Of a DNA stretch of 16,781 nt, positions 1,629 to 16,781 are shown one piece after another. Made by a program: the position numbers and the translations under genes. Below the pieces are notes generated by a model that saw only the letters and a program-made list of their open reading frames with translations, searched no databases and was not told where the DNA came from. Source of the DNA: an uncultured Bacilli bacterium (GTDB lineage: Bacteria > Bacillota_I > Bacilli_A > RF39 > UBA660); contig CAKPMN010000019.1 in assembly GCA_934168005.1 (NCBI GenBank), positions 1-16,781 on the forward strand, read 5' to 3'. Within the stretch, counting starts at the first letter, position 1, and the number at the start of each line of letters is the position of its first letter.

Positions 1629-1649
1629 AAGCATTCTTAAAGAATGCTT
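1629..1649 (-). terminator. Intrinsic terminator of the HerA-like gene
   Basis: Perfect 9-bp stem aagcattct / agaatgctt with a 3-nt loop. On the minus strand it is followed by TTTTAAGTT. The stop codon (1648-1650) lies inside the stem. Confidence 0.6.
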
Positions 1650-3399
1650 ATGCTTTCCATCTATTTTCTACATCACAGTTTGAACTATGTGGTGGAGGTG
1701 ATGGAGGATCCATTTTTATAATCATTGGAATTGTAAATGCCTTACCAAATCCAACACATGTACCTGGTTGTAAACTTTTTTGTTTTTCTATTATTTCTTG
1801 ATTAATGTTTGGTAACATTTTTCTAATGTATTCTAGATCTCTTGGGTGATTCATTTTAAATATTAAGAAATTTGAACATTGTGATATAACTGTTTCTGAT
1901 ATTTCAACTGGTCTTTGTGAAATAAGATTGAATATTAATCCATATTTTCTTCCTTCTTTTGCAACCCTATCAAATATGTTATATCCAAGTAAAAATTTAT
2001 CATTATCATTTTGAACATATCTATGAGCTTCTTCTAAAAATATATGGAATGGAATAGAAGCTCTTACTTTTAATCCTTTTGTAAATGCAAACAACATTTT
2101 TGTGTATATTTTTGTTATTACTTTAGCTAATCTATCTTCTATATCTTCTAAGTTAAAGTTTATTATTTGAGCTTTTTTTCCTGGAGCGTATGTTACTAAT
2201 GAAGCTATGTAGTTTTCTAATGAAATATATTCTGGATAATGGAAGTATTTTTCATCTTCTCCTATAGCTAATGAGTGAAGTCTAACTTTTAAAGCTATTG
2301 CTTCACTATATGTTTTTTCATTTCTAAGTAATCCTTCTGATATTAAAGTAAAATTCAAAGCTTTTTCTAAATCATTTAATGTAAAGAAATGTCTTTCTTG
2401 TGATTCATATTTATCTAAGTTATCATCAATAAATTCAGAAATATATTGTGTAACTAAAATACTTTCTACAAATGATCCATCTTTATCTATTATGAAACAT
2501 TCTCTGAATTTTCTTACGTATCCAATTCCTTGAACTGGGGCTTCCAAATTAAATTGTGGTGTTGAACATGTAGCTAGTATTGAAAATATATCATTTCTCT
2601 TACTAGATGCATTTTGGTTTGTATATAGTATTGTCATTATTGCTTTAGCTATCAAGTGATTTTTATATCTTATGGCCATTTCGTTTGATTCTGAGAACAC
2701 TCTAACTAATTTTAGCATTTCTTCTATTATTGGTATTTGAGCATGATCTGTTGCATCTAATAAAAGAGCCATATCGTCTACATCTAAAAGCCACAATGGT
2801 ATTGATAATATATTTCCTTCTTTGTCATTGATATTAGTTGTATAGTATTTAAAATAAAAATTTGGATTTATCTTGTTTATATCTTTAAAAGCTGTATGAT
2901 ATTCTCCATATGCATCAAATATAAAGAAATTTGATCTTATTGGTACAACATTTTTATTTTCAAAAACATTTTGCATTAATCTTGCAAGTCCCCATGATTT
3001 ACCAGATCCTGTATTACCAAAAATTGCTGAATGGTTTGAAAACATATCATTTACATCTATATATAATGGGTAATCATCATATAGAGGAGACTTTCCTATT
3101 AACATTGATGATGGTGTCTCCTTACCGACAATAAGTCCAAATTCTTCTTTTGTTATTAATCTTACAGCAGCTGATAAGCTAGGTTTTCTAATTACTCCGC
3201 CTAAAAATCGTCCATCTTTTATTTCACCTAAAAATCTTACCTTAATAAGTTCCATATCCATATCTTCAACTTCACCAACTATTTTTTTATTTGGGTCGTC
3301 AAAGATGATATGCATATTCATCATATCTTGAGCTAGTACATCGCCTTCTACTTTAATATGAGCAACATTGTCTGAAATGTATATAATTTTTCCAATCAT
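1648..3399 (-). CDS. HerA/DUF87-family P-loop ATPase (FtsK-HerA superfamily)
   Basis: 583 aa. N-terminal HAS-barrel-like segment (IGKIIYISDNVAHIKVEGD...VGEVEDM). Walker A FGNTGSGKSW, Walker B FHIFLEEAHRYV, and the typical EGRKYGLIFNLISQRPVEISETVISQCSNFLIFKM block. RBS AAGGGGA sits 13 nt after the ylxM stop. Confidence 0.8.
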   Translation of the reverse strand: MIGKIIYISDNVAHIKVEGDVLAQDMMNMHIIFDDPNKKIVGEVEDMDMELIKVRFLGEIKDGRFLGGVIRKPSLSAAVRLITKEEFGLIVGKETPSSMLIGKSPLYDDYPLYIDVNDMFSNHSAIFGNTGSGKSWGLARLMQNVFENKNVVPIRSNFFIFDAYGEYHTAFKDINKINPNFYFKYYTTNINDKEGNILSIPLWLLDVDDMALLLDATDHAQIPIIEEMLKLVRVFSESNEMAIRYKNHLIAKAIMTILYTNQNASSKRNDIFSILATCSTPQFNLEAPVQGIGYVRKFRECFIIDKDGSFVESILVTQYISEFIDDNLDKYESQERHFFTLNDLEKALNFTLISEGLLRNEKTYSEAIALKVRLHSLAIGEDEKYFHYPEYISLENYIASLVTYAPGKKAQIINFNLEDIEDRLAKVITKIYTKMLFAFTKGLKVRASIPFHIFLEEAHRYVQNDNDKFLLGYNIFDRVAKEGRKYGLIFNLISQRPVEISETVISQCSNFLIFKMNHPRDLEYIRKMLPNINQEIIEKQKSLQPGTCVGFGKAFTIPMIIKMDPPSPPPHSSNCDVENRWKA

Positions 3400-6820: not shown

Positions 6821-7714
6821 TTAACTATTTTTAGTTACATAAACATCATATAATGTATATGTTAATCTCATAGCGGCATATGAATCTTTATTTGCATGAT
6901 AACAAGCTCCTATAGTTAATATTCCTGTTGAAGCATTATAACTTTTTGTCCAAGTTTGATATGAAACATATTGAGATTCATTATAAATATATTGTGATGC
7001 TGTATTAAGTGGTGTAATAATAAAATCTGCTGCTGTTAGTTTTTCATACCCATCAATACTTGTGCAATTAATGGTTACTTTATTAATCGATGATGCTTTA
7101 GATGCTACTTTTTTCCAAGTTGATAGATTCCCACTTTGTTCTTTTGATCCTGTTATAAGATTTCCCTGAACAACAGCTGTTTTCCCCTTAGTTATATCGT
7201 CTTCTGTTGCATTTCCTTTTGATTTTAGATCATTTAGTTCATTTTGTAAACTTGATATTTGATTTTTTAATATATCAACATCACTTATAATTGTAAAATC
7301 TCCAGTTTCTCCATCATATGAACATATCCCTTTTCCAGTAGTTAGATTCGTATCATTGACATTTTTATATGCATAGTTGGTGTTATCATCTATGCATAAT
7401 GCCACTTCTCCCTTGTTTGTTAATATCAATTTACCATTTTGAATATTACCTTTGTATTCTAAAAGTTCATTATTTGAACTAGTTTGCTTACCGTTTGAAA
7501 AATTATATTCAATTTTATCAAAGTCAGAATTTTTTATCATTGTTTGTGCGTAATAATAATTAGCTGATTCTATTAAACCATATGCAGAATCTTTTAAAGC
7601 ATTTTTTTTACCTTCTTGTACCATTCTATTTATTGTCGGTACAGCAACCAATGCGATTATAGCTAATATTACAATGACTGCTAGTAATTCAACTAATGTA
7701 AACCCTTTTTTCAT
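6821..7714 (-). CDS. Type IV prepilin-like protein with a large non-pilin C-terminal region
   Basis: MKKGFTLVELLAVIVILAIIALVAVP is a class III signal: a short basic leader, G|F cleavage site, Glu at +5 and a hydrophobic helix. I place the start at ATG 7714 (297 aa). The track's TTG at 7732 lies only 5 nt from the predicted -10. The C-terminal part has a coiled-coil-like stretch (ILKNQISSLQNELNDLKSKG) and a beta-rich tail. Confidence 0.8.
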   Translation of the reverse strand: MKKGFTLVELLAVIVILAIIALVAVPTINRMVQEGKKNALKDSAYGLIESANYYYAQTMIKNSDFDKIEYNFSNGKQTSSNNELLEYKGNIQNGKLILTNKGEVALCIDDNTNYAYKNVNDTNLTTGKGICSYDGETGDFTIISDVDILKNQISSLQNELNDLKSKGNATEDDITKGKTAVVQGNLITGSKEQSGNLSTWKKVASKASSINKVTINCTSIDGYEKLTAADFIITPLNTASQYIYNESQYVSYQTWTKSYNASTGILTIGACYHANKDSYAAMRLTYTLYDVYVTKNS

Positions 7715-7736
7715 ATTATCCCTTACTTTCAACTAA

Positions 7737-10887: not shown

Positions 10888-11259
10888 TTATGAACAACTA
10901 CTTGTTGTCTGTAGTGAATAAGTAAATTCTTTATATTCATTTACAACTACTTTTATTCCTAATGATAAATCAAGTGCTGAACCATCTTGAAAATTTGTTA
11001 TTGGCTCTTCTAAAAGTTCTTTATCTACTAAATCTTGTAAATGAATGCAATAAGTATTTCCAACTTCTTTTTTATATGTATGGCTATCTGCTGTTACATA
11101 TAACTCTGCTGCGTCATAAATCATTCTTAAAGTAGTTTCATGAACTGCTGTTTTTTTGTTGGCTACTTCATTTTGAATTTGTGGGATAGCAATTATTAGT
11201 ACAAGTCCTAAAATAACAACAACTGCTAACATTTCTACTAGTGTAAAACCTCTTTTCAT
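10888..11259 (-). CDS. Type IV prepilin/pseudopilin-like protein (ComGC/PilE-like size)
   Basis: 123 aa. MKRGFTLVEMLAVVVILGLVLIIAIPQ is a canonical prepilin N-terminal cleavage/methylation motif. RBS GAGGA lies upstream. Confidence 0.85.
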   Translation of the reverse strand: MKRGFTLVEMLAVVVILGLVLIIAIPQIQNEVANKKTAVHETTLRMIYDAAELYVTADSHTYKKEVGNTYCIHLQDLVDKELLEEPITNFQDGSALDLSLGIKVVVNEYKEFTYSLQTTSSCS

Positions 11260-11281
11260 AACTATCCTCTTTTCTTTTTAT

Positions 11282-11310
11282 ATTATAACTTTTAGAAAAA
11301 AAAAATGCAA
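11282..11310 (-). promoter_or_regulatory. Sigma-A-like promoter of pilin gene 2
   Basis: Minus strand reads TTGCAT (11310-11305), a 17-nt spacer, then TATAAT (11287-11282). The -35 overlaps the rpmF terminator. Confidence 0.55.
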
Positions 11311-11321
11311 CTATGCTGCAT
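11296..11321 (-). terminator. rpmF terminator
   Basis: 5-bp stem ATGCA/TGCAT (11305-11309 / 11317-11321) with a 7-nt loop. On the minus strand a run of 10 T follows. The stop TAG (11311-11313) is in the loop. Confidence 0.5.
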
Positions 11322-11517
11322 CTTCTTTTTTAATAACTTCTTTACCTTTGTAAGTTCCACATTCTTTACAAACTCTGTGTGGTTTTACTGTTGCACCACA
11401 TTTTGGACATGTAGTAGTAGTATTTTCAGAAATTTTGTAATGTGTACGACGTTTTCTTCCTCTTGTTTTACTTACTTTTCTGAATGGAACAGCAAATAAT
11501 TGTAATTCTAATTTCAT
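11311..11517 (-). CDS. rpmF: 50S ribosomal protein L32, zinc-ribbon (C+) form
   Basis: [18 protein letters not shown] followed by CPKCG...CKECG. The ATG at 11517 has a good SD (GAGGTG), which gives an 8-residue N-terminal extension (MKLELQLF). Confidence 0.9.
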
Positions 11518-11531
11518 CTTAACACCTCGCT

Positions 11532-12011
11532 TTACTTTAATAGATCGTTCAGTTTCTCAAAAGGTGAGTTTAACTTCACTTCATCATCCTTGATAAGTCT
11601 CCAGCCATCTCCTTCAATAGTGAAGTCTTTGGCTTCTGGACTAACAACTTTCATGGGAATTTCCATTACTATATTTTCCCATATAATCTCGAAAATATCA
11701 ATAGAATTTTCACATCTTTTATAACTTTTTTGGTTATTTTCAAAGTATTCTCCTAATATTTCGTCTATTTTTATACTAAATGGAAGCGCAACTTCTTTTA
11801 ACGTTACTGAACATGGTAATATCATAGTTCCTGACACTGTTACATCTAAGTGGTAATCATCATAGCTATTTTCTAAAAACCCAACTATTTTTGCATTATC
11901 TAATCTAATTATATCTGTTCCTTTTAGTTCTTCTTCACTAAAGGAATAAGTTAGGTCTATATCTACATATGACTCATATCCACTTTTTAATTTTGTGATG
12001 TCTATCTGCAT
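11532..12011 (-). CDS. yceD: YceD/YlbN (DUF177) family protein
   Basis: 159 aa, acidic, sitting immediately upstream of rpmF (classic yceD-rpmF pair). Carries the family-typical C..C/E-rich pattern. Confidence 0.8.
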
Positions 12012-13386: not shown

Positions 13387-13941
13387 TTATTTAAGTTCTC
13401 TATCACTAAATTGGAATATAGATGTATATTCTAAAACTTTCCATTTATTATCTTCTTTTACTATAGTAAATGGTTTTTCTATTTCATAATAGCCATCACT
13501 TGTACATCCTTCTCCATAACTTACAATTGATTCTTTCTTACACATTTTAGTCATGGCTTTATATTCTATTTTATTTTTTCTTATTTTTTTAATTTTTAAT
13601 ATAGTTCCATAATAATTTGATATACCTTTTCCAATTGGATTTATATAATATTTATTATCTTTTTCTTCTATATTTAAAAATTCATTTACTTTTGGTATAA
13701 AAGATTTACTTACAATATTTTCTATAATTGAATAATTTGTTATAACATATTTATCATTTTCTTTTTTATAGTCTAAATCTCCACCATAATAATACAAATT
13801 ATGTATTTCTTCATATATAGAACTTCCTTGTTCTATTTTTTTATTATTTTCTTTTTTTATTTTATTAATAGTTAATGTTATTACTAATACTATTAAAAGC
13901 ACTAGTAACAACACTAACATTCTCTTTATATTCCTCTTCAT
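13387..13941 (-). CDS. Membrane-anchored (N-terminal signal-anchor) protein of unknown function
   Basis: 184 aa. MKRNIKRMLVLLLVLLIVLVITLTI is followed by a Lys/Tyr-rich ~150-aa domain ending ...VKEDNKWKVLEYTSIF. The ATG lies 2 nt after the stop of the glycine-rich gene. Confidence 0.6.
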   Translation of the reverse strand: MKRNIKRMLVLLLVLLIVLVITLTINKIKKENNKKIEQGSSIYEEIHNLYYYGGDLDYKKENDKYVITNYSIIENIVSKSFIPKVNEFLNIEEKDNKYYINPIGKGISNYYGTILKIKKIRKNKIEYKAMTKMCKKESIVSYGEGCTSDGYYEIEKPFTIVKEDNKWKVLEYTSIFQFSDRELK

Positions 13942-13943
13942 AA

Positions 13944-16781
13944 TTATGACCCTAAATATGTTATCTTAGCATAACCATCGCCTGTATTACCAACAACTGT
14001 CTTCCCTTCTTTTGATGGCATACCAGATGATGAACCAGATTTCTCCGTTGTCCAAGGATAACCAGCCCCATCAATCATTTGTGTATTAATAAAGGTATAT
14101 CCAGTATACGATATTGAATCAACTAACTTAGAATATGTTGATGCAAGTGACTTTCCTGATGAATTAACACCTATACATCCAGCATGACCAGATATATAGC
14201 TAGAGCCACCAGAATTTAATCCTGAAGCATAACTTCCTCCTGCTCCACCATACCAACCGCTTCCACCGCCTCCGGCAGCCCAAGTATACGAAACAGAATC
14301 TCCACCAAAACCAAAACCACCACCTTGTCCAGAATAATTAGAAAATGGTTTTCCACCAGCTATTTGATTAGCAGCTGTTCCAGAATAACTAGACGAGTTA
14401 CTAGTTCCGCTTCCTATATTACTTATAAGGCCTCCACCAGCTCCACCAGTACTATACCAAGAAGAATTATCATGAGCAGATCCGCCTCCGCCACCAGCCG
14501 CAACCATAATTCTTGACTTTAATGAAGTAGCCTCATTCCATGAGCTTAACAAAGACGTAGCAATAGTTCTAATATCTGTCGCTCCGCCTCCTCCACTTCC
14601 TGTTCCTTTAGCAGAAAGTCCTTTACCTCCGCCATTCCAGCCACCATTTACATACATATAGCCTTTTGGCATTTCTCCAACATATATGTATAATTTTTGA
14701 CCAACATTTAATTTTATTTCTCCATACGTATAACCTCCAAAACCGCCTGGCTTACCATTTGATCCACCTTGGGCTCCCCATAATTCAATTGCATACGTTC
14801 CCGCTTTGTTAACTGTAAACAGCTGATAAGTTTGTGAAAAGTAAAAATATTCGTTGTTTTCATTTGATTTAGTTGTCAAATTTTTTTCTCCTAGATATGT
14901 TATTTTTACTTTTCCGGAACCTTCAGACTGTCCGCTTTCCATACTTGCATTATTGAAATAGTAGCCACTGTAGTGATAAGCATTACCACTATGAATAATT
15001 GACGATTTTTCACTATTCTCATAAATCGAAGAACATCCTTCATATCCTGATATATATGAAGTTCCTCCATTAGTAGGTCCTGCTGCATAAGTCGATCCTG
15101 TACCTCCATAATATCCGCCTCCTCCTCCGCCACCGGCCCAATCGTTAGTTTGACTATTACCGCCATAGCCAAACTCTCCATTTTCTGAGGGATTGTTATT
15201 AGATAATGGAAAACCACCTATCGTCTGTGTTGGAACTGATGGCATATAACCATTTGCATTTGAACTTCCAGTTCCATTTATTCCAGTAAGTCCGCCTCCT
15301 GCTCCACCTGTACTATACCAAGAAGAAGCATCATGATTAGCTCCGCCACCGCCTCCTGATGCAACCATAATTCTCGTCTTTAATGAGCTAAATTCTTTCC
15401 AATCATCATTCAAAATTAATCTTATATCTGTTGCTCCGCCTCCGCCACCTCCTGTTCCTTTAGCAGAAGTTCCTTTACCTCCGCCATTCCAACCGCCATT
15501 TTCAAATAGAGGTTGTTCACCTACATAGACGTATAAATTTTTGATTTTATCAGTATCTAGATAAATATTTCCAGAAGTATACGCTCCTTTTCCACCAGTT
15601 CTTCCATATGATCCACCTTGAGCTCCCCATAATTCTATTCTATAAGTTCCCGTTTTTTCTATATTAAATTTCTGGTATTGTCCAGAAAATACATAATTTC
15701 TATTGTACATATTATCAGTTTTTTCTAAACTATCTTTAACAATAACTGATTGTAGGGTAATTTTTGCATAGCCATTTCCAGACCTTTGTGCTGACTTCAT
15801 TTCTGTGTTTACAAAATACTTACCGCTGTAATGATATGCACTTCCATTATGGATTATATTTATTATCGTACTTTCTTCTTCTATTGAAGAACATCCATTA
15901 TGTCCACTTATATAACTAGATCCACCAGATGTATATGAGCAAGCATATGCAGAACCAGCTCCGCCGTAATATCCGCCACCGCCTCCACTTCCAGCCCAAT
16001 TATTAGTTTGACTATCTCCTCCTCTTCCAAAACTTCCTGATTGTCCTGGATAAGTTTTTGTAATCGATACTCCACCATATGACTGGCTAGGTGCAAGTGT
16101 TTTGTAGCTTGAAGCGTTACTACTCAAAGTCAGTGATATTTCTCCTGCAAAAGTACCTCCATTTCCTCCAGAACTATACCAATCATTTGCGTGAACACAT
16201 CCACCTGCTCCTCCTGCTGCAACCATAATTCTTGACTTTAATGATTCAAAATCTGACCATTGATCTTGGCTTGTACTGTTTGTTAACCTTATATCAGTGG
16301 CCCCGCCTCCTCCGCCTCCAGTCCCACTGCTTGAATAACCATTTCCGCCTCCATTCCAACCACCTGTTATTGAGGTTGGTTGTCCACCTACATATACATA
16401 TAAAATTTCCCCCGCATTTAAATATATTTCTCCTGATGTATACGATCCTTTTCCACCAGTACTATTAGATGTATTTACAGTTTTTCCTTGGGCTCCCCAT
16501 AGTTCTATTTTGTAGTATCCTGAAAATACGGCTTTAAATGTTTGGTATTTTCCTGTATAGTCATATGTTTTTGTTATCTCAGCATTTATATCTGTTCCTG
16601 TTAAATCTACATAATTATTTTTTAAATTAACATAGTATAACATTGTCCATGATTCACCGTTATAAACATATGATTTCTTTAATACCCATTTATTATTTTC
16701 ATACTGCATTACATAACTTATACCGATTCTATTCCAGTCACTTGTTACATAATAATTACTTGTATTATCTTGTACTATCCA
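13944..16781 (-). CDS. Very large glycine-rich repeat protein with three tandem ALK/LTK-type glycine-rich-domain-like modules; 5' end lies outside the window
   Basis: The frame stays open from the TAA stop at 13944-13946 to the window edge. Upstream of the listed ATG (16709) there are 24 more sense codons (WIVQDNTSNYYVTSDWNRIGISYV) and no SD. Three modules carry the same ordered motifs. Confidence 0.85.
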   Translation of the reverse strand, partial: WIVQDNTSNYYVTSDWNRIGISYVMQYENNKWVLKKSYVYNGESWTMLYYVNLKNNYVDLTGTDINAEITKTYDYTGKYQTFKAVFSGYYKIELWGAQGKTVNTSNSTGGKGSYTSGEIYLNAGEILYVYVGGQPTSITGGWNGGGNGYSSSGTGGGGGGATDIRLTNSTSQDQWSDFESLKSRIMVAAGGAGGCVHANDWYSSGGNGGTFAGEISLTLSSNASSYKTLAPSQSYGGVSITKTYPGQSGSFGRGGDSQTNNWAGSGGGGGYYGGAGSAYACSYTSGGSSYISGHNGCSSIEEESTIINIIHNGSAYHYSGKYFVNTEMKSAQRSGNGYAKITLQSVIVKDSLEKTDNMYNRNYVFSGQYQKFNIEKTGTYRIELWGAQGGSYGRTGGKGAYTSGNIYLDTDKIKNLYVYVGEQPLFENGGWNGGGKGTSAKGTGGGGGGATDIRLILNDDWKEFSSLKTRIMVASGGGGGANHDASSWYSTGGAGGGLTGINGTGSSNANGYMPSVPTQTIGGFPLSNNNPSENGEFGYGGNSQTNDWAGGGGGGGYYGGTGSTYAAGPTNGGTSYISGYEGCSSIYENSEKSSIIHSGNAYHYSGYYFNNASMESGQSEGSGKVKITYLGEKNLTTKSNENNEYFYFSQTYQLFTVNKAGTYAIELWGAQGGSNGKPGGFGGYTYGEIKLNVGQKLYIYVGEMPKGYMYVNGGWNGGGKGLSAKGTGSGGGGATDIRTIATSLLSSWNEATSLKSRIMVAAGGGGGSAHDNSSWYSTGGAGGGLISNIGSGTSNSSSYSGTAANQIAGGKPFSNYSGQGGGFGFGGDSVSYTWAAGGGGSGWYGGAGGSYASGLNSGGSSYISGHAGCIGVNSSGKSLASTYSKLVDSISYTGYTFINTQMIDGAGYPWTTEKSGSSSGMPSKEGKTVVGNTGDGYAKITYLGS
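13947..14849 (-). repeat. Glycine-rich module 3 (aa 621-921), with a longer C-terminal tail
   Basis: YFYFSQTYQLF...YAIELWGAQGG...GGFGGYTYGEIKL...LYIYVGE...GGWNGGG...GTGSGGGGATDIR...SLKSRIMVAAGGGGG...WYSTGGAGGG...WAAGGGGSGWYGG...GGSSYISGHAGC...GDGYAKITYLGS. Confidence 0.85.
14889..15698 (-). repeat. Glycine-rich module 2 (aa 338-607)
   Basis: NYVFSGQYQKF...YRIELWGAQGG...GGKGAYTSGNIYL...LYVYVGE...GGWNGGG...GTGGGGGGATDIRL...SLKTRIMVASGGGGG...WYSTGGAGGG...WAGGGGGGGYYGG...GGTSYISGYEGC...GSGKVKITYLG. Confidence 0.85.
15750..16571 (-). repeat. Glycine-rich module 1 (aa 47-320 of the listed ORF)
   Basis: YDYTGKYQTF...YKIELWGAQG...GGKGSYTSGEIYL...LYVYVGG...GGWNGGG...GTGGGGGGATDIRL...SLKSRIMVAAGGAGG...WAGSGGGGGYYGG...GGSSYISGHNGC...GNGYAKITLQ. 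Confidence 0.85.

Follow-up and report, generated by a model that had tools for sequence, protein, structure and literature searches.

The stretch of DNA analysed here, which we refer to as the window, is 16,781 nt long and comes from an uncultured low-GC human-gut Bacilli bacterium. At its end it carries most of a minus-strand gene for a protein with tandem glycine-rich domains (GRDs), together with a small partner gene, small184, and two canonical prepilin genes (Table 1). An open frame runs from position 16781 to a stop codon at 13944-13946, with 945 codons and 0 internal stops; the ATG open reading frame as listed spans 13944-16709. Contigs that are 99-99.96% identical to the window supply the rest of the protein, for a total of 1081 aa, and L085, with 99.96% identity, carries the gene out to residue 10. 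P0001, a protein of 1081 aa, is 99% identical to the window protein, and we used it for the full-length analyses below. The original prediction had called the protein giant, which it is not, since full-length copies in the databases reach only 1081-1082 aa.

Table 1. Features of the GRD locus and the prepilin genes in the window (a slash marks the leader junction)
Feature	Position	Strand	Basis or remark
GRD protein gene, 3' 87%	13944..16781	-	Residues 137-1081 and stop codon; runs off window end
Stalk end and linker to module 1, residues 137-206	16572..16781	-	P0017 homology; AlphaFold β strands
GRD module 1, 274 aa	15750..16571	-	Own HMM envelope 71-344 of open frame; best PF12810 stretch 87-343
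GRD module 2, 270 aa	14892..15701	-	Modelled with AlphaFold; PDB, phage and PHROG matches
GRD module 3, 302 aa	13947..14852	-	HMM envelope 644-943; insertion of ~30 aa; conserved tail ...GYAKITYLGS
small184 partner gene	13387..13941	-	Starts 2-24 nt past GRD stop codon
Canonical prepilin gene, 123 aa (MKRG/FTLVEM), ComGC/GspG-like	10888..11259	-	PF07963; TIGR02532, ComGC and GspG profiles
Canonical prepilin gene, 303 aa (KKG/FTLVEL)	6821..7732	-	PF07963, TIGR02532

The gene begins at an ATG preceded, 8 nt upstream, by a Shine-Dalgarno sequence (AAGGAGG), and its product is rich in Gly (20.9%) and Ser (13%). It is unbroken in nine near-identical database copies and has no internal stop, which rules out the alternative that it is a pseudogene. 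Between the window and L001, the gene shows 42 synonymous and 12 other differences; as these changes are mostly synonymous, there is no sign of positive selection between these two strains. The chain ends in ...GYAKITYLGS, 2 residues past the third GRD. A scan of the whole protein found no LPXTG-like motif (LP.[TSA]G), as had been noted for its C-terminus, and this C-terminus is not that of a sortase-anchored protein. The whole protein had no match in NCBIfam or among PDB sequences, and no terminator was detected near the 3' end of the cassette.

Three tandem modules of the ALK/LTK glycine-rich family

The motif ELWGAQG lies at residues 69, 359 and 642 of the ATG open reading frame, which reproduces the periods of 290 and 283 residues reported earlier. 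The motifs LY[VI]YVG, GGWNGGG, GGGGATDIR, SLK[ST]RIMVA, WYS[ST]GG, GG[ST]SYISG and G[YK][AV]KIT each occur exactly three times and in the same order. In pairwise comparison the modules are 52-59% identical as protein and 73-75% as DNA, with alignment scores 29-43 SD above those of shuffled controls. Pfam PF12810 (ALK_LTK_GRD), with a curated gathering threshold of 24.5 bits, matches the window protein three times at 406.5 bits (E 7e-122), and the best stretch spans model positions 7-242 of 243. Full-length P0001 gave the same outcome, and the only other Pfam family seen in the protein was a sub-threshold match to MG2. The window modules almost certainly belong to the ALK/LTK GRD family; the triplet of such domains that had been proposed from motif order is borne out both by this profile and by the structure model described below. 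Across 258 relatives' modules and the three of the window, conserved Gly motifs alternate with ~10 hypervariable segments.

AlphaFold modelled module 2 with high confidence (pLDDT 94.9, pTM 0.93) and with ~11 β strands. Model residues 131-249, a stretch of 119 residues with 27% Gly, have little α/β structure and a pLDDT of ~94; an ordered, Gly-rich region of this kind is expected of a glycine lattice. In the PDB, the model's top 21 matches are without exception ALK/LTK GRDs, each at probability 1.0, and the next is the tail fibre of cyanophage Pam3 (7YPX, probability 0.90). Disordered Gly-rich loops, the outcome that would have counted against the proposed domains, do not describe a model of this confidence whose best PDB matches are GRDs. 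The predicted fold is a TNF-like β-sandwich combined with a glycine-rich lattice, with only a moderate fit to solved ALK/LTK GRDs (TM 0.37-0.49, rmsd 9.5-13 Å, identity 15-22%). Predicted phage proteins fit the model better (TM 0.6-0.72): in BFVD, 42 proteins match with E < 1e-3, the highest TM being 0.72, and the PHROG families phrog_7388, 1589 and 5811 match module 2 at E values of 1e-24 to 1e-36.

A pilin-like N-terminal segment and a β-rich stalk

The full protein starts MKNKKG/FVVSAVLY…, with a basic leader, a Gly-Phe pair and ~22 hydrophobic residues. A signal peptide or an anchor had been considered for the missing 5' end; the near-identical contigs revealed this pilin-like Gly-Phe hydrophobic segment there instead of a Sec signal peptide or wall anchor. 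The junction MKNKKG/FVVSAVLYPLLVLFLAIIMGLLSM is read from P0001 and is confirmed from residue 10 by the window's own lineage. We call the first ~45 residues the carrier, which consists of the leader MKNKK, the Gly-Phe junction, the hydrophobic stretch and a conserved RKxxLDKxK.

The leader-Gly-Phe junction is the same as that in both canonical prepilins of the window, and hhalign aligns it with the junction of canonical prepilins over 14 columns, at a probability of 84%. Mature position 5 is Ala (FVVSA), so Glu5 is absent. PF07963, TIGR02532 and the ComG/Gsp, ComGG, GspK, Pfam and NCBIfam pilin profiles matched nothing at E values up to 10, either in whole P0001 or in its first 71 and 206 residues. 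P0001 also lacks a globular pilin head on its α1 helix, which in canonical relatives is a module of ~140 aa between helix and stalk. In AlphaFold, residues 1-86 have a confidence below 50, and residues 90-205 form β strands at pLDDT 55-83. Between the carrier and the GRD array lies a β-rich stalk of ~120-150 residues. P0001 residues 79-184 share 46% identity with residues 146-250 of P0017, which is a GRD protein of the canonical-prepilin type.

Homologues of the N-terminus came from an exhaustive HMMER scan; word-indexed searching with the first 206 aa had yielded nothing but fragments. Among the 44 proteins that share it, G6, F7, Y14, R34, K35, D39 and K42 are conserved in at least 90%. Behind this same N-terminus, the payload is a GRD array in 17 of the 44, and in the others it is Ig-like, lectin-like or of no assigned type.

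Relatives and cassette copies

Tandem GRD proteins are common in bacteria: at least 3037 proteins were found. In reference genomes, where single-protein patterns found no relative, a profile scan gave over 552 loci. These relatives bear 2-7 tandem modules, and their hosts are mostly uncultured gut or rumen Bacilli, along with Clostridia, Muribaculaceae and Segatella albensis. P0017, P0021, P0035 and others have the same stalk and GRD array behind GFTLVE N-termini with N_methyl (PF07963) matches. Automatic annotation currently names such proteins 'glycine-rich protein' or, misleadingly, 'receptor protein-tyrosine kinase'.

Prokaryotic relatives of the ALK/LTK glycine-rich domain have, to our knowledge, never been studied, and a full-text literature search found no paper on bacterial GRD proteins. 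Adhesive modules on modular pilins are established, and the 2021 survey of such pilins lists the architectures IPR012902-PF12810 and IPR012902-PF12810×3 in its Dataset S1 and one PilY1 with PF12810 in its Dataset S2 (PMC8179133). The original prediction knew of no characterised tandem arrangement in bacteria; because tandem GRD proteins are common and a pilin with three PF12810 domains is tabulated in that survey, the arrangement is uncharacterised rather than unknown. Both the domain family and the architecture are already catalogued, and no bacterial member has a demonstrated function.

Within a single genome the cassette occurs at least twice, with two copies ~70 kb apart on a contig of 323,715 nt. 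Copies whose N-termini are 94-99% identical bear arrays of 2, 3 or 4 modules, and the identity among these modules is only 48-63%, which contradicts the earlier view of an old and maintained triplication. Among paralogues the last 78 aa are 47-83% identical, against ~50-58% for the module cores. When loci are compared as DNA, the cassettes are homologous only in their first ~850 nt and their last ~0.9-1.5 kb. Carrier and stalk are strongly constrained, and the GRD array varies in sequence and module number between paralogues of the same genome.

The small184 protein has 177-184 aa and one N-terminal transmembrane helix. A homologue directly follows the GRD gene at three different loci (59-93% identity), and the family comprises just 46 proteins, several of them on contigs of the same size as those with GRD genes. 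Between the window and L001, small184 is the most divergent stretch. It had no match in Pfam, PHROG or PDB (best PDB hit YoeB/IseA, non-significant at E 0.065), and an exact-match look-up of the protein returned none. No homologue was found near the GRD genes of more distant loci, so small184 is specific to this clade.

Genomic context

Housekeeping genes flank the GRD gene at three loci (Lon, YqeH, TmcAL, YceD-L32, Obg, LysRS and similar), and neither the window nor the 10 kb upstream holds a prepilin peptidase, a platform protein or an assembly ATPase. Neighbour clustering across 80 diverse GRD loci revealed no conserved neighbour, the maximum being 7 of 80 (LepA), and hence no family-wide operon partner. 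A prepilin-GRD gene sits beside a T2SSE ATPase gene and a further pilin-like gene in 4 of the 80 related loci. We list the two canonical prepilins of the window as context only. The 303-aa prepilin matches the N-terminal 140 aa of P0017 (BLASTP E 2e-27), and its pilin module is fused to GRD arrays in other genomes.

Discussion

Our reading of the whole is that the gene product is a protein of the cell surface that binds a receptor and possibly caps a type IV filament, and we give this a probability of roughly 0.6. That it is an extracytoplasmic binding protein is probable. Each GRD module would form a rigid β-sandwich with a glycine lattice, and its variable loops would bind a ligand in the manner of ALK/LTK and phage tail-fibre tips; the paralogues would supply a repertoire of specificities or antigenic variants. 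In Pam3 gp24, the same unit of a TNF-like and a Gly-rich part makes up the tip that binds the receptor, and it is similar to C. elegans ALK (PMC9608196).

Display at a pilus tip is a more tentative part of this reading, and we hold it at somewhat below even odds. The protein would be a pilin-like subunit, cleaved after Gly6, which for want of Glu5 would cap the type IV filament of the canonical pilins encoded nearby. Subunits that lack Glu5 cap the tips of type IV filaments (PMC10191384), and a large extra domain would fit at the filament tip only (PMC10191384, PMC12153270). More speculatively, the downstream membrane protein small184 may act outside the cell as an aid to folding or assembly of the GRD array.

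The same features could belong to a surface protein with no link to pili, held by an uncleaved hydrophobic segment as signal anchor, with the stalk and three GRDs projecting through the wall. The ~22 hydrophobic residues with Lys and Arg on their flanks fit such an anchor; so do the lack of a pilin HMM match, of Glu5 and of a pilin head, the lack of pilus assembly genes in the window or 10 kb upstream, and the housekeeping surroundings of the gene. However, an anchor does not explain why Gly-Phe stands at the start of the hydrophobic stretch, or why RKxxLDKxK is conserved among proteins that are otherwise 20-35% identical. Moreover, homologous stalk-GRD proteins have bona fide prepilin N-termini, and the genome encodes canonical prepilins with the same style of leader. 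On balance, we regard a plain membrane anchor as rather unlikely. Release into the medium as a soluble Sec-secreted protein has very little probability: some other GRD proteins of the family do start with Sec-type or SipW/TasA-like signal peptides, but substrates of signal peptidase I rarely have a hydrophobic core as long as these ~22 residues, and by inspection no AXA-like site follows it.

The structural matches raise a different question, namely whether the protein is a phage-derived receptor-binding protein, namely the tail fibre of a prophage or tailocin, whose assembly chaperone the downstream gene would encode. Its best structural matches are phage proteins, PHROG families match it, and, as is typical of tail-fibre loci, a conserved N-terminus is combined with a variable distal part and a small gene downstream; both the domain pair and a neighbouring chaperone are also seen with Pam3 gp24 (PMC9608196). 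Yet all three loci are free of phage genes and have housekeeping flanks, the N-terminus is of membrane or pilin type rather than a baseplate-attachment domain, and the partner protein, which has a transmembrane helix, matches no PHROG family. We consider this origin very improbable; a recent one is rejected, given that tblastn of one module against 50,697 phage genomes found no match, and the genomic context disfavours the reading as such. Equally hard to credit is a cassette akin to polymorphic toxins or bacteriocins, in which a conserved N-terminus delivers a variable effector and the downstream gene encodes immunity. The conserved N-terminus, the variable remainder and a small downstream membrane protein that is itself variable would suit it. 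No toxin domain was detected, however, PF12810 being the sole Pfam family besides the sub-threshold MG2, and the variable part is the GRD array, with the extreme C-terminus better conserved. Polymorphic toxins show the reverse.

The preferred reading, a surface receptor-binding protein that may cap a filament, has partial parallels in known systems. As members of PF12810 (formerly Gly_rich), the window modules are each full-length and high-scoring, and the domain itself is no different. The ALK/LTK receptor kinase GRDs (7LRZ, 7NX1, 7N00) belong to the same Pfam family and are the sole solved structures at probability 1.0. In contrast to these receptors, the window protein is bacterial, has three GRDs in tandem instead of one, and ends without an EGF-like domain, transmembrane helix or kinase after the GRD; it has no known ALKAL-type ligand. 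Among protein folds, the glycine-rich domain of ALK/LTK is one of the rarest, and it is medically important.

Modular type IV pilins likewise combine an N-terminal carrier with grafted binding modules, and P0017, P0021 and P0035 fit this design exactly. Known examples in S. sanguinis are PilB with a vWA module and PilC with a lectin module (PMC8179133). The window protein differs in having no globular pilin module, Glu5, pilin profile match or pilus operon. With the Glu5-less cap subunits (GspK/PilX-type, and ComGG at the tip of the Com pilus) it shares the retained Gly-Phe junction and the absence of Glu5, but it has no sequence match to ComGG or GspK, and no partner minor-pilin operon was found. 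Its likeness to the Pam3 gp24 tail-fibre tip (7YPX/7YFW) lies in the same two-part fold, in Gly motifs that alternate with hypervariable loops, and in the small gene directly downstream, positioned like that of the fibre chaperone gp25. Unlike gp24, it is encoded by a chromosomal gene in non-phage surroundings, its modules follow one another along a single chain instead of standing at the tip of a trimeric fibre, and small184 shows no detectable similarity to fibre chaperones. The phage S16 protein gp38 is another polyglycine-rich adhesin.

A bolder and improbable extension is that the Glu5-less 'KGF..S..LY…RKxxLDKxK' N-terminus defines an undescribed class of tip-capping pilin carriers with swappable payloads (GRD, Ig-like or lectin-like). 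GRD cassettes would then diversify as paralogous loci recombine through their conserved 5' and 3' ends, the co-inherited small184 would chaperone the glycine lattice outside the cytoplasm, and the bacterial and phage GRD would be the receptor-binding fold ancestral to the ligand-binding domain of ALK/LTK. The carriers of this proposed class would be those of uncultured gut Bacilli, and small184 would be comparable to the assembly chaperones of phage tail fibres.

The practical gain at present is an annotation better than 'glycine-rich protein' or 'receptor protein-tyrosine kinase'. Gut commensals use the GRD fold as tandem arrays, in several variable copies per genome and on carriers that we infer to be of pilin type, and structurally the fold is closest to the receptor-binding tips of phages. 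Provided that the proposed binding function holds, the proteins would be candidate host, mucus or cell-cell adhesins of abundant uncultured gut Bacilli, and they would offer a tractable bacterial model for polyglycine-II lattices that present variable binding loops.

Three tandem ALK/LTK-type glycine-rich modules

The GRD protein, which carries three tandem ALK/LTK-type glycine-rich domain (GRD) modules, is encoded by a minus-strand frame in which all 945 codons from 16781 to the stop at 13944-13946 are open. As originally noted, the listed ATG ORF contains ELWGAQG three times (aa 69, 359 and 642). Another seven motifs are likewise present in triplicate and keep a constant order, in keeping with the proposed ordered motif set. 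The three modules share 52-59% protein identity, with alignment scores 29-43 SD over shuffles, and 73-75% DNA identity. Gly makes up 21% of the protein, and no LPXTG motif is present in it, which agrees with the absence originally stated for the C-terminus. A 103-aa GTG ORF that lies within the gene in a different frame (14906-15217, minus strand) is most likely a side product of Gly-rich codon usage and no gene.

GRD modules and canonical prepilin genes of the window
Feature	Position	Strand	Remark
GRD module 1	15750-16571	-	Placed in this analysis
GRD module 2	14892-15701	-	Placed in this analysis
GRD module 3	13947-14852	-	Placed in this analysis
Canonical 123-aa ComGC/GspG-like prepilin gene	10888-11259	-	Directly 3' of yceD and rpmF (L32) (11260-12011), same strand
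Canonical 303-aa prepilin gene	6821-7732	-	In other MAGs, its N-terminal pilin module is joined to GRD arrays (E 2e-27 to the relative P0017)

The domain identity proposed from the motifs was confirmed by a Pfam search, in which PF12810 (ALK_LTK_GRD) matched the protein with E 7e-122 in three stretches covering almost the full model. Searches of NCBIfam and of PDB sequences with the GRD protein gave no match. The full-length AlphaFold model (36 aligned relatives) had a pLDDT of 83 and a pTM of 0.77, with the modules at ~90, while module 2 alone (30 aligned modules) reached 94.9 and 0.93. When full-length and single-module models were compared with the PDB by Foldseek, all 21 top matches in either search were glycine-rich domains of ALK or LTK (probability 1.0, E 1e-7 to 1e-3), and the next match for the single module was the tail fibre of cyanophage Pam3 (probability 0.90). 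Superposition on the solved ALK/LTK structures was moderate only (TM 0.37-0.49). A single module comprises ~11 β strands and a confidently modelled 119-residue region of 27% Gly with little α or β structure, as a polyglycine-II lattice would give.

Predicted phage proteins superpose better on the module than the solved ALK/LTK structures do, with TM up to 0.72. At E < 1e-3, 42 predicted phage proteins were matched in BFVD, from gut sipho- and myoviruses, cyanophages and Caulobacter phages, and three PHROG families were matched at E 1e-24 to 1e-36. Many of the same-fold phage proteins in BFVD bear the automatic name 'receptor protein-tyrosine kinase', evidently an annotation artefact spread from the ALK/LTK domain entry. 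The Pam3 fibre tip and ALK/LTK are the two characterised settings of this fold, which binds a ligand or receptor in both (PMC9608196); by this analogy, the GRD modules may act as binding heads. In 258 modules of relatives together with the three of the window, conserved Gly motifs alternate with ~10 hypervariable segments.

A constrained N-terminus and a variable array

The closest database protein, P0001, has 1081 aa and is 99% identical to the GRD protein. Contig L085, which is 99.96% identical to the window across 15.2 kb, extends the gene to residue 10, and on contig L084 a Shine-Dalgarno AAGGAGG stands 8 nt upstream of the ATG. Independent assemblies (L084, L085 and L086) have their contig ends within the 5' part of the gene or next to it. 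At the N-terminus, the sequence is MKNKKG/FVVSAVLYPLLVLFLAIIMGLLSMTDTRKRILDKMK, with a short basic leader, then Gly-Phe and ~22 hydrophobic residues (this N-terminal part is here called the carrier); residues 1-86 were modelled with low confidence. Between carrier and modules lies a β-rich stalk (residues 79-184), 46% identical to the matching part of P0017. Since the stalk domain (P0001 residues 85-195) also opens the ~250-aa proteins P0237 and P0243, which have neither an N-terminal helix nor a Pfam match, it is an independent, undescribed domain.

Some proteins match P0001 at 94-99% identity over the first 206 residues and have two, three or four modules that are only 48-63% identical to the P0001 modules; they sit at different loci. 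Two such copies are found ~70 kb apart on a single 323,715-nt Hadza contig (ERZ4560474 NODE_16) and are therefore paralogues within one genome. DNA homology between loci starts 6 nt upstream of the ATG and extends over ~850 nt, with 91% identity. Protein identity in this part is 98%, which indicates that carrier and stalk are under purifying selection. Homology is lost across the array and reappears with the last module, continuing into the downstream gene; the final ~0.9 kb is ~99% identical between both loci of one genome. A homologue of this downstream partner gene (13387-13941, minus strand), encoding a membrane protein of 177-184 aa, follows each cassette copy. We conclude that the GRD protein consists of a constrained carrier and stalk followed by a variable array of three modules, and that a genome holds several copies of the cassette, all accompanied by a partner gene of their own.

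Several assemblies, the window included, end inside the 5' part of the GRD gene, which is repeated at other loci with ~91% DNA identity; truncation of the ORF at 16781 is thus probably an assembly effect of this paralogous repeat. Comparison with L091 and L081 shows that the 110-kb contig L092 (12980-13870) passes from locus A, represented by its left flank and cassette, to the right flank of locus B. The join spans ~0.9 kb of sequence with ~99% identity between the two loci; it is a genuine recombinant or else a chimera made in assembly. A deletion alone would take out essential genes.

Only 46 proteins belong to the partner family, which lacks any known domain; the one similarity to a solved structure, B. 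subtilis YoeB/IseA, was non-significant (E 0.065). Between the window and the related contig L001, differences per kb number 2-4 in housekeeping genes, 9-38 in the GRD gene and 54 in the partner gene, the most divergent stretch. In the partner protein, 10 of 13 amino-acid changes fall in residues 121-141. The GRD gene shows 42 synonymous versus 12 other differences, and this mostly synonymous pattern points to import or conversion of sequence, not to positive selection.

Relation to type IV pilins

The leader, Gly-Phe and hydrophobic layout resembles that of the two canonical prepilins of the window (MKRG/FTLVEM and KKG/FTLVEL), which carry Glu at mature position 5 (Glu5), whereas the GRD protein has Ala there. 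By hhalign, its N-terminus and those of canonical prepilins align in register (probability 84%, over 14 columns). A regex count over the N-termini of the 120 best relatives gave 18 of type GFTLxE, 33 of a Glu5-less GF type and 13 of type GITLIAL, with further E5-bearing variants such as GFVLLE falling in the class 'other'. Pfam N_methyl is present in several relatives. In P0017, P0021 and P0035, the order is prepilin, a ~140-aa pilin module homologous to the 303-aa prepilin of the window, the same stalk as in the GRD protein, and 2-3 GRD modules; the C-terminal ~160 aa of the 303-aa prepilin are without known domain. Among 80 related loci, four have a prepilin-GRD gene immediately 3' of a pilin-like gene and, just upstream, a divergently oriented gene for a T2SSE ATPase (E 5e-118).

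When the first 206 residues were used in an exhaustive HMMER scan, residues 3-50 were found again at the start of many proteins. In 44 such N-termini, G6, F7, Y14, L17, L19, R34, K35, D39 and K42 are at least 90% conserved; the payload is a GRD in 17, and elsewhere DUF6273, an Ig-like domain, Flg_new, Laminin_G_3 or nothing known. P0214 has its first 65 residues in common with P0001 and a different payload.

We infer a link to pili, and display of the GRD protein at the tip of a type IV filament would be the most economical reading (tentatively, a probability of about 0.4), as it accounts for the Gly-Phe junction, the lack of Glu5 and the relatives with canonical prepilin N-termini. A Glu5-less subunit caps filament tips (PMC10191384), and modular pilins are established adhesins (PMC8179133). 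Pilin profiles gave no match to the N-terminus, even at E up to 10; no pilus assembly genes were found near the GRD gene in the window or in the 10 kb upstream of it, and no neighbour of GRD genes was conserved across diverse loci. The main rival to tip display is that the protein is held by an uncleaved membrane anchor, which we regard as rather unlikely. Genomic context and domain content both speak against a phage origin, a toxin and a soluble secreted protein, and these readings are disfavoured.

Tandem-GRD proteins including P0044, P0057, P0067, P0068 and P0072 start ...AYSAFSSTMNITG..., and their resemblance to SipW/TasA-type signal peptides suggests that GRD arrays may also be attached to another fibre-forming export route.

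Genomic setting and novelty

The 123-aa prepilin may be the major pilin; its place behind yceD/rpmF is unusual for such a role and could mean constitutive expression. Two genes for HerA/DUF87 ATPases (583 and 590 aa) are paralogues with 77% DNA identity over 670 nt; one lies in the window after ylxM (1648-3399, minus strand), the other just upstream of the GRD gene, past the window end (L001 7931-9703). Upstream of the GRD locus, a gene with SpoVID-N-like and LysM domains (L001 4269-4874) hints that the organism may form spores.

Tandem bacterial PF12810 members are abundant (at least 3037 proteins), and reference genomes, for the most part MAGs of gut and rumen Bacilli, contain more than 552 loci. 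Dataset S1 of PMC8179133 already lists the pilin plus PF12810x3 architecture, and Dataset S2 one PilY1 with PF12810. A literature search for studies of bacterial PF12810/GRD members found no paper. The domain family is already known and its bacterial kind uncharacterised; what may be new is that the carrier lacks Glu5, that a variable cassette with a partner gene occurs in multiple copies, and that the modules are close to phage receptor-binding tips.
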